From the sequence record NC_029091.1: a stretch of 64,000 nt of DNA; one strand, given 5' to 3'. Position 1 is the first letter of the stretch. The number at the start of each line of letters is the position of its first letter. The position numbers and the translations under genes were made by a program. This DNA comes from Escherichia phage APCEc01. Positions 45,038 through 54,954 of the stretch are shown piece after piece. The notes beneath the pieces are model-generated. The model saw only the letters and a list, made by a program, of their open reading frames with translations, did no database searches and was not told the origin of the DNA.

Positions 45038-45086
45038 GTTTACATGCTGATAGGACTATGTTATAGTAGTCCTATCAAAACAAATG
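45038..45086 (+). promoter_or_regulatory. early promoter embedded in stem-loop (PeSL-like cassette, copy A)
   Basis: GTTTAC, 17 nt, TTATAG inside 9-bp inverted repeat ATAGGACTA/TAGTCCTAT; near-identical copies at 51859 and 53423. Confidence 0.6.
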
Positions 45087-50350: not shown

Positions 50351-50714
50351 GCCCTGGGCATACGAATACAAGCGTAAATTAATCCCAAATGAAGTACTAT
50401 TTGGCCCTATTTTAGCTTTAGCATTTTTAATCTTTATGATTATAGGAGCTGTTTTAGATTCCAATAAAGTTATATCGTCTGATGCAGCATTTTCATTAAT
50501 GTTCGTCGCACCACTTATTGTACCGTTTTTATTAATGCCTATTAATTGGGTAGGATATTGGCACCAAGGCCGTCATCACAGAGCTCGAGTAAGAGAATGG
50601 AAAGTTCAGTGCGCAAAAGCCCAAGCTCAGTATGATGAAGCTGTTAAAAAGTATGAATATGAAGAAGCTATGGAATTCGTTAAGGAAATAAGATGCAAAA
50701 GCCTCAACTCTTAA
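50319..50714 (+). CDS. membrane protein, F-x-K-E-x-R-C C-terminal family (131 aa)
   Basis: two predicted TM helices; ends ...AMEFVKEIRCK; start uncertain (50289, 50319 or 50340). Confidence 0.45.
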   Translation: MSKPTLYMPIKPWAYEYKRKLIPNEVLFGPILALAFLIFMIIGAVLDSNKVISSDAAFSLMFVAPLIVPFLLMPINWVGYWHQGRHHRARVREWKVQCAKAQAQYDEAVKKYEYEEAMEFVKEIRCKSLNS

Positions 50715-51052
50715 CCGTATGGCCTTCTCTTGGTGAGAACATTCTAATTTTTATTATGAGTATTGGCATGGGATTTGCCTTTGGATTAGTTGGATTTCTT
50801 ATTGACGGCGTTGTGTTAGGATTTATAGGGAACACTGGTGGATTCACAGACCAATGGCAGGACTTACGGTATACCCAAGCCTTTGCATCCATCGCATCAT
50901 TTTGTACTGTAGTCTATTTTTACTACGATTTTATAAACCACAACAAGAAAAATAAAAAGGTTTACGCTTCTCAAATGATTAGTTATAATGAACTCCTAGC
51001 TAGACGTGAAAATGAAACAATCGAAAACTTTATTAAGGAATGTAGAAAATGA
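50693..51052 (+). CDS. membrane protein, NFIKECR C-terminal family (119 aa)
   Basis: 2-3 predicted TM helices; ends ...ETIENFIKECRK. Confidence 0.5.
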   Translation: MQKPQLLTVWPSLGENILIFIMSIGMGFAFGLVGFLIDGVVLGFIGNTGGFTDQWQDLRYTQAFASIASFCTVVYFYYDFINHNKKNKKVYASQMISYNELLARRENETIENFIKECRK

Positions 51053-51354
51053 GTAAGATTATTGAAATTAAAGTACCAGAGTTTAATGATGCCAAATCCG
51101 CTTCAGATGCAATTTATAAACTTCTGAATCAAGCTGAACGTATCGAAGAAGAAGCAACAAAGATCGCAGACCAATATGCCGTATCATTTTCTGTAGGTGA
51201 TTATGGTAGCGGTCGTACTTATTATCCTAAGGGTGAAATCGTATCCCAGTGGATGAAAGATGAAATTGAAAATAATGGCGGCGATGTTAAGCGTGAAGGT
51301 AATGGATACGTTATTACTGAAGGTGCTTGGGTTTCGTCTTCTGCGTTGTGCTAA
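51049..51354 (+). CDS. hypothetical protein, GWVSSS-x-x-C C-terminal family, member 1 (101 aa)
   Basis: ends ...EGAWVSSSALC; ATGA overlap with upstream gene. Confidence 0.5.
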   Translation: MSKIIEIKVPEFNDAKSASDAIYKLLNQAERIEEEATKIADQYAVSFSVGDYGSGRTYYPKGEIVSQWMKDEIENNGGDVKREGNGYVITEGAWVSSSALC

Positions 51355-51363
51355 GGAATCATT

Positions 51364-51636
51364 ATGTCTAAAGAACAAACCGAACTGGCTGAAGCTGTAG
51401 CAAAAATCTATGCAGCTATTGAGGCTGCCAAAGAAATTGCTGATAAACAAAACACAACATTCAACTTGTACCCAGCTTATGGTATGGGTGGAACCTATCA
51501 TTCACCCGGACATCTTAAAGCCGATCTTGAACGTTGTACAAAAAACGGCTATGCTGAATGGGCTGACGTTTACCAATACGACTACAACCTGAGCCTCGAA
51601 ACTGGTGGTTGGGTCGCATCTTCTCACACTTGCTAA
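51364..51636 (+). CDS. hypothetical protein, GWV-x-SS-x-x-C family, member 2 (90 aa)
   Basis: ends ...GGWVASSHTC; SD AAGGAA. Confidence 0.5.
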   Translation: MSKEQTELAEAVAKIYAAIEAAKEIADKQNTTFNLYPAYGMGGTYHSPGHLKADLERCTKNGYAEWADVYQYDYNLSLETGGWVASSHTC

Positions 51637-51645
51637 GGAAACAAT

Positions 51646-51843
51646 ATGTCTCGTGAATTAGATTGTGCTGTACGTACGGCAGTAGCTGCTCTGGAAAACC
51701 TGTTCCAAATTGCAACAGAAGAACGCGAAGAAGTTACATTATGGATTGAAGATAACGCAGGTCTGAATCTCCAGGACGCGATCTCATTATCCCACAATAG
51801 TATCACTGTTCAAGGCTGGGTATCATCTAGTTATTCTTGCTAA
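51646..51843 (+). CDS. hypothetical protein, GWVSSS-x-x-C family, member 3 (65 aa)
   Basis: ends ...QGWVSSSYSC; SD AAGGAA. Confidence 0.5.
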   Translation: MSRELDCAVRTAVAALENLFQIATEEREEVTLWIEDNAGLNLQDAISLSHNSITVQGWVSSSYSC

Positions 51844-51847
51844 AACA

Positions 51848-51896
51848 GTTTACAACAAGATAGGGCTATGTTATAGTAGTCCTATCAAAACAAATG
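51848..51896 (+). promoter_or_regulatory. early promoter in stem-loop (PeSL-like cassette, copy B)
   Basis: GTTTAC, 17 nt, TTATAG; gatagggctatgttatagtagtcctatcaaaacaaatg. Confidence 0.6.
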
Positions 51897-51905
51897 GAGT
51901 CCACA

Positions 51906-52145
51906 ATGATTTATTACGAAAGTATCGGAACCAAAGTGGTTAGTAAAACCATTACTCGTGAAAAGTTTGCAAAGATATTCGATATGCGTTATAAAAAATC
52001 TGAACACAAAGGCATCCGATTCGAAGATGCGCACTGTACAATTTGCCCTTATAATGAAGACATAAACGGTACAATCGTTCCATTGGTAGAGGCTTCACAT
52101 GATGACCTCTGGGATGAATATAATATCGCATGTCGTGAAATTTAA
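51906..52145 (+). CDS. hypothetical protein (79 aa)
   Basis: start at ATG after SD GGAG (the track start ATG is part of the SD). Confidence 0.45.
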   Translation: MIYYESIGTKVVSKTITREKFAKIFDMRYKKSEHKGIRFEDAHCTICPYNEDINGTIVPLVEASHDDLWDEYNIACREI

Positions 52146-52173
52146 GTTAATGAATTAATCCGAGGAAAATATT

Positions 52174-53130
52174 ATGATGTTAGTTATTGGTTCTCGTGCA
52201 CTTCACTATCACGGTCTTATTGATTCTAGCGCTATTAAAAATAGTGATTGGGACTTTATTGCGGACCAAGGTTCTTGGAATGCATTCAAAAATCAAATGA
52301 TGGGTGTATATGTTCACCAAGATAACCCTGATGTCCAAGTTTTCAAATGCTTCCATAATGGACGCGAAACTCATTTTGAAGCATATATTGTTCCGGCAAT
52401 CACTAATGTCCGTGAATTAGTCGGTGAACTCACTCCTGAAGATTTCACGTCTTCTTATGACCTTTTAAAATACGCCAAGAAAAATTTGACTAAAGACCGT
52501 TTGAACGGGTTTTACTGGGCAACTCCTGAGATATGTCTTGCAATTAAGATGTCTCATCGTTTCAAGAAAAATAATCCATTCTTTTTAAAGACTATGAACC
52601 ATATTCAGTATCTTCGTGGTAAAGGTGTTACACTGAACGATGAACTTACTGAAATTATGCTGAAACGCCAGAAAGAAACCTTGAATTATGCTCACCCAGT
52701 TCTTGACACTTCTAAAAGTGCGTTCTTTAAAGATGACATCTATACATATGACCATGATACTATTCATGAAGCCATTGCACTAACAGACCGTCCAGCGTAT
52801 ACATTTTATATGAAAGATGGTTCTGAAGTCATGACCTCACGCGAGAAGTTCGAATCATTACCAGAAATGGTCAAATTGGCCGGCGTATACGAAGAATCAT
52901 GTGTACTAGCGTTAGAACGTTCTCAGATTCCTAATAACTTTGAAATCCATCCACGTGATAGTTTTATGATGGCCCTTGAAAAGGTCTGTACATCAATCAC
53001 ATCAGGATGGTTCCGTGAGTTCGCTTGGGAAAATTATAGCAAAGTAGTAAGTATGTACCAAAGCTTAGGACACGACGATTACGTCAAGCGTTTCAAACAA
53101 AACTTTCATATGGTAAAACCTTTCAAATAA
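52174..53130 (+). CDS. hypothetical protein (318 aa), possible nucleotidyltransferase-like N-terminus
   Basis: largest ORF of the accessory region; N-terminal IGSRAL...SDWDF weakly resembles the G-S...D-x-D signature. Confidence 0.5.
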   Translation: MMLVIGSRALHYHGLIDSSAIKNSDWDFIADQGSWNAFKNQMMGVYVHQDNPDVQVFKCFHNGRETHFEAYIVPAITNVRELVGELTPEDFTSSYDLLKYAKKNLTKDRLNGFYWATPEICLAIKMSHRFKKNNPFFLKTMNHIQYLRGKGVTLNDELTEIMLKRQKETLNYAHPVLDTSKSAFFKDDIYTYDHDTIHEAIALTDRPAYTFYMKDGSEVMTSREKFESLPEMVKLAGVYEESCVLALERSQIPNNFEIHPRDSFMMALEKVCTSITSGWFREFAWENYSKVVSMYQSLGHDDYVKRFKQNFHMVKPFK

Positions 53131-53142
53131 TTTCACAAAACA

Positions 53143-53172
53143 GTTTACAAGGTCTGTAGTTGTTGATACTAT
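53143..53172 (+). promoter_or_regulatory. early promoter (GTTTAC, 18 nt, TACTAT); upstream 26 bp identical to 44665-44690
   Basis: shared aaataatttcacaaaacagtttaca. Confidence 0.55.
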
Positions 53173-53210
53173 AGACCTATCAAAACAAATGAGTGAATGG
53201 AGATATAAAA

Positions 53211-53469: not shown

Positions 53470-53775
53470 ATGAAATTAGGCGAAACCAACCGAATTGGTC
53501 TTTTAACAATATTTGTATCACTTTTTTACGCAGCTCTTTCTGTTGCAGTATTACAAAAGGCTTACAGTATGGATGGTGTTCCTGGTTTTGTATTCTTATC
53601 GCCGTTTTTGCTATTCGTTGGAGCATTGTTATTATATGCCACGACTAGTTTCGACCATAACGTCTGGGTCAATTATAAATGTAAATTGTCTGAAGAAGAA
53701 CACGCAGAAGCTCGTAAAAAAGCTATTGAATCTACCAATCTAGAAAATTTCATTAAAGAATGTCGAGGAAAATAA
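53470..53775 (+). CDS. membrane protein, NFIKECR C-terminal family (101 aa)
   Basis: two predicted TM helices; ends ...NLENFIKECRGK. Confidence 0.5.
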   Translation: MKLGETNRIGLLTIFVSLFYAALSVAVLQKAYSMDGVPGFVFLSPFLLFVGALLLYATTSFDHNVWVNYKCKLSEEEHAEARKKAIESTNLENFIKECRGK

Positions 53776-53776
53776 T

Positions 53777-54463
53777 ATGAATAGTTCTAAAGTGTTTAAT
53801 AGTCAAGCTCGTGCAGTAGGTGGTTTTGCTCATGCGATTAAAAATGACCAGATTAAAAACGAGCCTATGTTCTTTAATTGCGATTTGAATTTTGCTTTTG
53901 ATAACGGCGGTCCAATTACTCGTAGCTTTATCCAAAATCTCCCTGACGATTGGAAAGACTCGGATGTAGTATTTGATTCACGAGTCCATATGCTGATGCC
54001 TGGTTGGTATCCTGCTATTCCTGGTTATCACCATGATGACGTACCACGCCCGGATATTCCGGTTGGTCAACATTTTATTACTGCAGGACAACCTGACTAT
54101 GACAATCCTCGCTATTTGTCTGAACATATTCTTGGTCTTGTTAACGCTGATGTGTGTCCTACTCATTTTGCAACAGGAACTGCAGAGTTCAGTCAGATTC
54201 CTGATGGCGAACTTATCTATCGCCAGTGGCACAAAGAAGTCCTCGAAAAAATCGAAAAAGGCGAACTAGAGAAATGGGAAGCTCCAGATCGTACTCTTCT
54301 TCAGTTTGATTGGCAAACATGGCACACTGGTTCTCGTGCAATTAGTAACGGATGGCGTTGGTTCGGACGTGTATCTCGTAATACAGACCGAGTTAAAAAG
54401 ATTACCAATGAAATTCGTGTCAATGCCCAAGTTTATCTGGAATTCCCTATGGAAGGATGGTAA
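53777..54463 (+). CDS. hypothetical protein (228 aa), His/Asp-rich, possible metal-binding fold
   Basis: ORF with SD GAGGAAA; contains YHHDD and WHTGSR segments. Confidence 0.5.
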   Translation: MNSSKVFNSQARAVGGFAHAIKNDQIKNEPMFFNCDLNFAFDNGGPITRSFIQNLPDDWKDSDVVFDSRVHMLMPGWYPAIPGYHHDDVPRPDIPVGQHFITAGQPDYDNPRYLSEHILGLVNADVCPTHFATGTAEFSQIPDGELIYRQWHKEVLEKIEKGELEKWEAPDRTLLQFDWQTWHTGSRAISNGWRWFGRVSRNTDRVKKITNEIRVNAQVYLEFPMEGW

Positions 54464-54954
54464 TGATTAACAAAACATATTGGTCTAATATAGACGATGG
54501 CAACGAAGGTATTTCATACTATTCAGTAGATTGGACAGGATGTCCATCCTACTTAGTGAAACATATTTGCCAAGAATTTAAAATCGACCAGCCAGCAGGT
54601 ATTATCGTGAACAGATACATTAATGGATATCAACCTATCGATGAAGTAATACGAACAACTCAAGCTGAGCTTGAAAAGTTTTTCAATAAGTGCCAATGGA
54701 TAACAGGATGGATTATATTTGTACCGTCGGTATGGTTTTTTAGTACTAAGGTGAGTTCTTTCGGTTTTGTTGATATTATTGCTATCTTATTAGCATCTGC
54801 TATCGTAAGTATAATTGGCGGTATAATTGGTGGAGGTACTGTAGGCATCATTATTAATCTTGTTAAAAGTAGTTTACAAGAACGTAAAGACAAGATAAAG
54901 GCCAAGAATAATGAAGTTGAACGTTTTATTACCGAATGCAGGAATTTGAGATGA
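54457..54954 (+). CDS. membrane protein, F-I-T-E-C-R C-terminal family (165 aa)
   Basis: C-terminal half hydrophobic (two TM helices, GxxxG-rich); ends ...VERFITECRNLR. Confidence 0.5.
   Translation: MVMINKTYWSNIDDGNEGISYYSVDWTGCPSYLVKHICQEFKIDQPAGIIVNRYINGYQPIDEVIRTTQAELEKFFNKCQWITGWIIFVPSVWFFSTKVSSFGFVDIIAILLASAIVSIIGGIIGGGTVGIIINLVKSSLQERKDKIKAKNNEVERFITECRNLR

Follow-up and report, generated by a model that had tools for sequence, protein, structure and literature searches.

Nucleotidyltransferases (NTases) of the Pol-beta superfamily are central to bacterial immunity and phage counter-immunity, as in the CD-NTases of cyclic-oligonucleotide-based antiphage signalling systems (CBASS), MenT/AbiE, HEPN-MNT and the NrdC.11-type decoy synthases. 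NTase-fold enzymes that modify proteins are also known, such as GlnE, GlnD, DrrA and the MNT antitoxins that AMPylate HEPN toxins. A gene for a 318-aa protein of Escherichia phage APCEc01 (NC_029091.1) was analysed here against this background; the stretch of 64,000 nucleotides in which the gene lies is referred to as the window. The protein was predicted to combine an NTase core with a second, helical domain. Its gene was found downstream of a tandem array of genes for small acidic proteins, which share a Ser/Cys tail and accompany the NTase family across phage lineages.

Several described systems bear on this locus. R76 and K79 of MenT3 hold the gamma-phosphate of ATP, and a Ser/Thr phospho-acceptor is strictly conserved in the families of the DUF1814 superfamily (PMC11375011). 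MenA1, a protein of 68 aa, obstructs two MenT1 protomers at their active sites (PMC10435456). The NrdC.11-type NTases of phages BCP1 and Av05 are reported to make 3'3'-cyclic GMP-AMP (3'3'-cGAMP) and cyclic di-AMP (c-di-AMP) and to inhibit TIR-STING (10.1101/2022.06.09.495361; summarised in 10.1101/2025.06.06.658234). The NTase of the pseudomycoidin lasso-peptide cluster acts on the C-terminal Ser of the linked peptide (PMC8498205).

The protein is encoded by an open reading frame (ORF) that starts with ATG and gives an N-terminus of MMLVIGSRALHYHGLIDSSAIKNSDWDF, and a Shine-Dalgarno sequence, GAGGA, was located at 52162-52166, 7 nt 5' of the start codon. The sequence-only reading of the window had presented this gene as the largest ORF of an accessory region, and it was the longest within 48-58 kb (the runner-up encodes 228 aa). 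The features of the gene and its product are as follows.

52174..53130, + strand: gene of the 318-aa protein, RB69ORF134c homolog (Pfam DUF7277 and DUF7275; phrog_2141)
52174..52623, + strand: predicted Pol-beta-type NTase core, residues 1-150, a beta sheet plus helices up to helix 137-149
52189..52194, + strand: G6-S7, NTase motif at the beta1/alpha1 junction
52246..52254, + strand: D25-W26-D27, predicted metal-binding carboxylates on beta2 (codons GAT TGG GAC)
52378..52380, + strand: E69, predicted third catalytic carboxylate, on a beta strand
52546..52557, + strand: K125-M-S-H128, in the helix after the sheet
52621..53127, + strand: all-helical domain, residues 150-318, highly conserved and with no solved relative

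The same reading had proposed a possible nucleotidyltransferase-like N-terminus and named structure prediction among the tests of it, and the predicted structure indeed showed an alpha/beta NTase core fold. In the model, a strand at residues 2-5 and a helix at residues 6-12 flanked V-I-G6-S7, corresponding to the hG[GS] motif at the beta1/helix junction, D25-W-D27-F lay on the strand at residues 26-31, and E69 lay on the strand at residues 64-73. The core fold, the hG[GS] motif, the [DE]h[DE]h pair and the third carboxylate of the Pol-beta superfamily were thus all predicted for the protein. The modelled core matched the structures of MenT1 (8an4), MenT3/TglT (6j7n), MenT4 (6y56), ANT(2'')-Ia (4xje) and LnuA (4wh5). 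The G-S...D-x-D signature that had been read from the letters alone proved to lie at G6-S7 and D25-W-D27 and was near-invariant across the family. Its spacing had been remarked on as longer than typical: S7 and D25 are separated by 17 residues, and the family consensus has 15 at this place, as against the classical 9-13. The match in fold suggests that the longer loop is tolerated; recognition from the motif is therefore weakened, and the fold assignment is unaffected.

Conservation was evaluated with 145-146 family representatives, one per 50%-identity cluster, each of which was at most 52% identical to the 318-aa protein. G6, S7, D25, D27 and E69 were invariant in a first alignment of the family, together with many residues of the C-terminal part. 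Among the representatives, G6 was conserved in 100%, S7 in 97%, D25 in 99% (the remainder being Glu) and D27 in 100% (146 representatives for G6 and S7), and position 69 was acidic in 143 of 145 after realignment with L-INS-i. This near-complete conservation argues that the motif is not a chance match. Conservation also reached 100% for K125, K139, H194, D195, H198, E240, E241, E248, R249, S277, G278 and R281, of which those from H194 onwards lie in the helical domain, and 98% for H128. K125 and H128 are candidate contacts of the NTP phosphate and base, by analogy with K189 and H191 of MenT3 (PMC11375011). The family consensus before the first Asp was R-x-P-K-D-x-D, with Arg at -4 in 89 of 145 representatives and Lys at -1 in 32 of 145. 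The isoelectric point (pI) of the whole protein was near neutral (6.5), that of the N-terminal half was basic (8.8) and that of the conserved C-terminal half was acidic (5.5).

According to these results, the 318-aa protein is predicted to have the NTase fold and an intact, family-invariant NTase active site, and it is very probably a real, active NTase of the Pol-beta superfamily. The C-terminal domain is a second, novel domain and is more conserved than the NTase core; residues 150-318 are presumed to bind the acceptor. An HD-domain phosphohydrolase was also considered for residues 120-318 (H128...H194-D195...E240), and this candidate was rejected since the helical fold of HD domains was not found there.

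In Pfam, where the gathering threshold was 27 bits, DUF7277 was assigned to aa 2-101 with a score of 97.2 bits and DUF7275 to aa 120-305 with 265.6. The protein belongs as a full-length member to DUF7277 (E-value 9.5e-28), DUF7275 (3.2e-79) and PHROG 2141 (1.7e-150), entries that carry no function; phrog_2141 is listed as a function-unknown family, and the short form of the protein corresponds to phrog_6944. K125/H128 and helix 137-149 are part of the predicted NTase core, so the Pfam split at residues 101/120 is out of step with the structural units. An NCBIfam search with the 318-aa protein gave no match, and PADLOC gave nothing meaningful for it, the sole match being a 13-bit Cas8b. No real relative was obtained by sequence searches of the PDB, either with the single protein or with a 68-sequence profile, where only a spurious match to PsaB was found. 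The 68 aligned members, compared with Pfam at E<=1, showed no consistent link to any NTase family. Full-text literature searches with the DUF names, RB69ORF134c, phrog_2141 and related terms returned no paper on the family.

The size and distribution of the family were determined with an exhaustive profile search over 1.84 billion representatives. At E<=1e-3 the family comprised 1,598 clusters at 50% identity, and 568 remained at E<=1e-30. Lengths of 284-377 aa were found for all of the top 150 cluster representatives, and nearly all of these matched end to end, which indicates a single architecture. The family was carried by 732 phage records, from phages of Escherichia, Acinetobacter, Aeromonas, Pseudomonas, Vibrio, Klebsiella, Gordonia, Streptomyces and others, where the annotation was 'hypothetical protein' with few exceptions. 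A label of 'prohead assembly scaffold protein' was seen on homologs in Klebsiella phage vB_KpnM-VAC36 (P0008) and Escherichia phage vB_EcoM_005 (H37), and these labels look like a propagated mis-annotation. Only 10 loci were found in cellular genomes among about 185,000 bacterial and archaeal species (one genome each); they were mostly contigs of metagenome-assembled genomes (MAGs), and the others were a few actinomycete chromosomes with the short form. A toxin-antitoxin (TA)-like or defence-island context was looked for in these cellular homologs and was set aside, as only the 10 loci, mostly MAG contigs, turned up. The family is essentially phage-restricted. Short forms of 261-263 aa in Gordonia and Vibrio phages (27-29% identity) kept the G-S and D-x-D motifs. 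In the single case of Vibrio phage K412 (L008, 1-663 and 1318-2103), the 261-aa short form lay two genes 3' of a nicotinamide phosphoribosyltransferase (NamPT) gene and 5' of a Mom-like DNA modification gene. A conserved enzymatic neighbour (RNA ligase, kinase or NAD salvage) was sought across lineages and none was found; NamPT occurred near the K412 short form only.

The ORFs upstream of the NTase in distant phages were compared because MenT toxins have small upstream partners. The comparison centred on an 83-aa ORF as the candidate and exposed the real conserved partner family. The ORFs 5' of the NTase in Aeromonas phage 44RR2.8t, phAPEC8 (E. coli) and Pseudomonas phage phiPsa267 matched the C-terminal part of phrog_899, and each terminated in W-x-S-S-(x-x)-C. 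Three tandem ORFs of the window, at 51049..51843, belong to the same family.

51049..51354, + strand: small acidic protein 1, 101 aa, RB69ORF139c family, phrog_899-like, ending GAWVSSSALC
51364..51636, + strand: small acidic protein 2, 90 aa, ending GGWVASSHTC
51646..51843, + strand: small acidic protein 3, 65 aa, ending QGWVSSSYSC

The linkage between the two families was quantified in 80 diverse viral loci taken with 6-kb flanks on either side. A hidden Markov model (HMM) of the small family, built in three iterations, was run against 15,983 six-frame stop-to-stop ORFs of at least 35 aa from 99 sources. There were 237 matches, of which 236 were upstream of the NTase on the same strand, one was downstream and none was on the opposite strand. 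Small-family genes were carried by 81 of the 99 sources, in one to six copies each, and the distance from the end of the nearest copy to the NTase start had a median of 352 bp; members were also evident by inspection or by a regular expression (regex) for the tail in several loci without an HMM match. The tail regex matched 201 of the 237 family ORFs and 28 of the 15,746 other ORFs. Furthermore, 24 of these 28 were on the same strand and upstream of, or abutting, the NTase start, and the other four (L061, L064, L067 and L089, one lineage) were about 7 kb off on the opposite strand. When loci were retrieved in reverse, with the small protein alone, the NTase lay downstream in 33 of 34, and the sole exception was a 3.6-kb contig that ends inside the array.

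Two controls were applied. As a control for relatedness, the NTases of the sampled loci formed 37 clusters at 70% identity, of which at least 25 had the array. The other neighbours, which encode 83-aa, 72-aa and 228-aa products and a membrane protein, were common to only 2-25 closely related T-even-like loci. Hence, general synteny does not explain the linkage of the NTase and the small proteins, which is strong, directional and cross-lineage. The NTase and the small-protein array are probably functionally coupled.

The small-family proteins were 40-202 aa long (median 86) and strongly acidic, with a median pI of 4.36 and 193 of 212 below pI 5. They had in common an N-terminal helical segment, a G-D-Y-G-x-G-x-T-Y-Y-P motif and, at the C-terminus, a tail with the consensus G-x-W-x-S-S-x-x-Cys. 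Among 143 distinct tails, the final Cys was present in 132, Ser at -3 and -4 in about 105, and Trp stood at -7 or -5. In some members the motif occurred twice, as an internal W-x-x-S-S-C-Y-G-E followed by W-x-x-S-S-C at the C-terminus, which points to the motif itself as the functional unit. These members are the following.

L002:3353-3631, small acidic protein with doubled tail motif
L020:4713-5117, small acidic protein with doubled tail motif
L045:5700-5954, small acidic protein with doubled tail motif
L088:5357-5677, small acidic protein with doubled tail motif

The small family had no Pfam domain, no name in any source, no PDB relative and no relation to known antitoxins. Against the small-family HMM, T4 Tk.1 (L133:10347-10550, - strand) matched only marginally, in the N-terminal part (13.9 bits, E about 1e-3), and it has no Ser/Cys tail; most likely this is background noise or a very remote relative without the tail.

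From these features we infer the enzymatic activity, the acceptor, the chemistry at the tail and the biological role. The first ~150 residues, with a core like that of MenT, ANT(2'') and LnuA, would bind NTP-Mg2+ through G6-S7, D25, D27, E69 and K125/H128. The acceptor site would most likely be shaped by the conserved helical domain (residues 150-318). NMP would be transferred from the NTP onto a hydroxyl, possibly a thiol, of the conserved small-protein tail, and the modified small proteins would act as effectors early in infection, in host takeover or counter-defence. Several arguments point to the small proteins as substrates. One enzyme with several diverged paralogs that have one invariant tail is the pattern expected of an enzyme and its substrates, and the charges of the two partners are complementary. 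Moreover, Pol-beta-fold enzymes normally use a hydroxyl to attack the alpha-phosphate of the NTP, and there are precedents for the modification of proteins and of a peptide C-terminal Ser by this fold. The cassette thus suggests an undescribed enzyme-plus-substrate pair. That the small proteins are nucleotidylylated substrates is a plausible proposal that we hold with some reserve, and the whole account, an active NTase with tail-nucleotidylylated small proteins as effectors, is the best explanation at hand and a tentative one.

Several points weigh against this account. The short forms of about 260 aa in actinophages, actinomycete chromosomes and K412 kept the catalytic motif and had no detectable small-protein partner, so the enzyme can exist without the small proteins. 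Proteins are not the substrates of the closest structural relatives, which act on tRNA 3' ends or on small molecules. The raw linkage counts overstate independence because many of the sampled loci come from T4-like phages that are related to one another. In L061, L064, L067 and L089, the sole tail-bearing ORF (...YAWCSSSMEC) was at about 12.0-12.9 kb on the minus strand, downstream of the NTase; this one metagenomic lineage departs from the upstream, same-strand order that is otherwise strict. In APCEc01 itself, a promoter/stem-loop element of the PeSL type and the unrelated 83-aa ORF separate the array from the NTase unit, and the two need therefore not be co-transcribed.

The protein could instead be an RNA 3'-end nucleotidyltransferase like MenT/AbiEii, which in infected cells would lengthen or mend the acceptor ends of tRNAs, or other RNAs. 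The purpose would be either a shut-off of host translation or the repair of tRNAs that host defences had damaged, and the small proteins would be unrelated cargo of the island. The tRNA-modifying toxins MenT1, MenT3 and MenT4 were the best structural matches, a MenT3-like R-x-x-K-D loop and K...H helix are present in the family consensus, the gene is near phage tRNA genes in T-even-type genomes, and the N-terminal half is basic (pI 8.8). However, 68 members gave no DUF1814/AbiEii profile match in Pfam or PADLOC, and the phospho-acceptor position, two before the catalytic Asp, was Pro in 67, Ser in 17 and Thr in 10 of 145 representatives and is Asn23 in the 318-aa protein. The near-neutral whole protein with its acidic conserved C-terminal half (pI 5.5) is unlike an RNA-binding surface, and the cross-lineage linkage to the small-protein array would be left unexplained; a role on RNA was thus considered unlikely. 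A lower probability was given to a toxic or tightly controlled NTase effector, with the small acidic proteins as its regulators (antitoxin-like inhibitors or activators) and not its substrates. MenT toxins are controlled by small proteins encoded upstream, as MenT1 is by MenA1 (68 aa), and the gene order, small ORF(s) and then the NTase, is the same here. By contrast, one to six diverged paralogs per enzyme would be unusual for an antitoxin, the element conserved most was a short Ser/Cys tail at the extreme C-terminus, not a binding surface, and the NTase family was almost absent from cellular genomes, the home of TA modules (10 loci in about 185,000 species).

The remaining explanations were all judged improbable. 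The products of a synthase of free (cyclic) oligonucleotides would compete with the second messengers of host immunity or serve as decoys for them, as is reported for the NrdC.11-type NTases. Minimal Pol-beta NTases of phages, including E. coli phage Av05, are reported to make cyclic dinucleotides (10.1101/2022.06.09.495361), and the gene appears from its promoter-like sequences to be expressed early and lies in an accessory region. The signature of these synthases, GS-x-AY[GAN]T-x4-SDxD followed about 60 residues downstream by NP-x-h2[DE], is absent from the 318-aa protein, whose catalytic stretch reads G-S-R-A-L-H-Y-H-G-L-I-D-S-S-A-I-K-N-S-D-W-D, with no NP-x-h-h-[DE] near residue 87. An equally improbable variant resembles the maturation of peptides that are made on the ribosome and modified after translation (RiPPs): the NTase would O-nucleotidylylate the tail Ser and the helical domain would promote elimination to dehydroalanine. 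The terminal Cys would then add to the dehydroalanine and give a C-terminal thioether ring (lanthionine or AviCys-like, S-x-x-C); in another branch, the nucleotidylated Ser would prime a short oligonucleotide. Either branch would yield covalently modified effectors, deployed early by a lytic phage against host functions. The gene arrangement and the S-S-x-x-C tail fit this variant; yet the proteins are acidic, folded-looking and 40-200 aa long, and the tail is conserved, not variable. No Pfam match to RiPP dehydratase, cyclase, protease or exporter domains (LanB/LanM/LanC etc.) was found in the enzyme and ten neighbouring ORFs. Slightly less probable still is a small-molecule NTase like ANT(2'') or LnuA, structural matches of the modelled core, which would inactivate an anti-phage metabolite (for example, of the aminoglycoside type) or a host cofactor. 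The hosts span Proteobacteria, with small forms in actinophages, and no metabolite that they would all share is evident; ANT(2'') and LnuA are half as large as the enzyme and lack its extra, unrelated domain, and the linkage to the small proteins would not be explained. A pseudo-enzyme or a structural or binding protein that keeps an NTase-like fold without catalysis is hardly credible. The spacing from G-S to D-x-D exceeds the classical one, but the three carboxylates, the G-S pair and the Lys/His residues of the NTP site were 97-100% conserved across the cluster representatives, the shortest forms included, which is the pattern expected of an active site.

The window derives from a Mosigvirus, an RB69-like T-even phage; over 3.5 kb around the NTase gene it was 99.7% identical to Shigella phage JK42. 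The gene lies in a variable region, with e.3 on one side and e.2/nudE/e (lysozyme)/denV on the other. In T4, e.3 and e.2 directly adjoin at the site that the cassette occupies in APCEc01. Neither the NTase family nor the small-protein cassette was found in T4 when 139 of 169 kb were scanned; the remainder, 90-120 kb, holds late structural genes on the T4 map. The local elements are as follows.

45038-45086, + strand: PeSL-type element 3, a near-identical copy
50960..50988, + strand: T4 early/middle-type promoter, GTTTAC-17-TATAAT with a GCTT box, 5' of the small-ORF array
51848..51896, + strand: PeSL-type element 1, early promoter GTTTACA...TATAGT overlapped in its -10 region by an 11-bp hairpin, then TATCAAAACAAATG; 5' boundary of orf83+NTase
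51894..52145, + strand: intercalated 83-aa ORF, phrog_3723, with a C-T-I-C motif, between the array and the NTase gene
53143..53191, + strand: PeSL-type element 2, 3' boundary of the NTase unit
53777..54463, + strand: ORF of 228 aa, without a Pfam match, that lies downstream of the NTase in 25 T-even-like loci

Phage SA79RD has an annotated middle promoter at the site equivalent to 50960-50988. The hairpins of PeSL-type elements 1 and 2 had energies of -16 kcal/mol (z -3.3) and -16.6 kcal/mol (z -3.2), respectively, and no copy of the element is expected by chance. The three elements match the PeSL promoter/stem-loop cassettes, to which modular shuffling in T4-type genomes has been attributed (PMC2839356, PMC4122927). 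Two such elements bracket orf83+NTase and thereby mark the unit as a shufflable module. The NTase of APCEc01 has the look of an early gene that occupies a PeSL-bounded module of its own, directly after the array. The 83-aa ORF was rejected as a conserved antitoxin-like partner, since it was present in only 14 closely related loci and is lineage-specific. Paralogs of a predicted, e.3/e.2-like membrane protein were seen on either side of the cassette, at 50693..51052, 53470..53775 and 54457..54954 (+ strand), with a common C-terminal tail (...NFIKECRK, ...NFIKECRGK and ...RFITECRNLR).

The NTase assignment alone is a useful and ordinary gain in annotation, and the conserved cassette of an enzyme and tail proteins is unexpected and widespread. 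The 1,598 clusters would form a further large Pol-beta branch, essentially phage-only, which sequence methods list merely as two DUFs. Even if the substrate proposal is wrong, about 1,600 clusters of 'hypothetical proteins' become predicted enzymes with defined catalytic residues. If the enzyme does modify the tails, lytic phages would possess in the cassette a new system of post-translational modification, with one enzyme serving many effector paralogs. For lanthipeptides, Ser is known to be activated by glutamylation and by phosphorylation; if the RiPP-like variant were true, activation by nucleotidylylation would be a route distinct from these, and one in viruses. That the cassette has not been studied is plausibly explained by its absence from T4.

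Compared with MenT/AbiEii (DUF1814), the 318-aa protein is predicted to share motifs I and II, which make up the metal site, and the bilobed NTase structure (described in PMC10435456). The R76-x-S78-K79-D80 segment of MenT3 has the same layout as the R-x-P-K-D-x-D of the family. MenT motifs III and IV consist of a catalytic Lys and a downstream Asp (K137/D152 in MenT1 and K189/D211 in MenT3); in a comparison made without residue-level superposition, K125 was invariant at a comparable position, and position 143 was Asp in more than 90% of the family and is His here. The differences were in sequence, architecture and context. No sequence-profile match to MenT/AbiEii was obtained at E<=10 for the 318-aa protein or at E<=1 for the 68 members, and the C-terminal 170 residues form a novel helical domain unrelated to these toxins. 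MenT/AbiEii are bacterial TA modules with AbiEi/COG5340 or MenA1, whereas the present family is phage-restricted and its partners are tandem acidic proteins with Ser/Cys tails. Membership in DUF1814/MenT was therefore rejected, given the lack of a profile match, of a conserved phospho-acceptor and of a TA context.

T4 nrdC.11 (L133:5436-6446, - strand; ...YFGSHLYGTSTPESDVDF...) fits the published signature of the anti-TIR-STING phage NTases. These NrdC.11-type enzymes also belong to the Pol-beta superfamily, lie in accessory regions of T-even-type and other phages and contain a catalytic S-D-W-D. Homology of the 318-aa protein to T4 NrdC.11 was rejected (hhalign probability 0.1%, E 0.64, plus the motif mismatch); T4 has NrdC.11, whereas the 318-aa family was not found there, and the two are different clades. 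ANT(2'')-Ia and LnuA are single-module bacterial enzymes of 160-180 aa that act on small molecules and have no sequence similarity to the 318-aa protein, which differs from them in its extra conserved domain and its protein partner family. The MNT antitoxins, GlnE, GlnD, DrrA and the pseudomycoidin NTase are precedents in mechanism, in that an NTase-fold enzyme modifies a genetically linked protein or peptide; they have one substrate gene, whereas the present cassette has tandem arrays and a W-x-S-S-x-x-Cys tail. Hence, set beside all of these systems, the locus presents a known catalytic fold in a new architecture and in a new, undescribed genetic partnership that extends across phage families sharing no other synteny.

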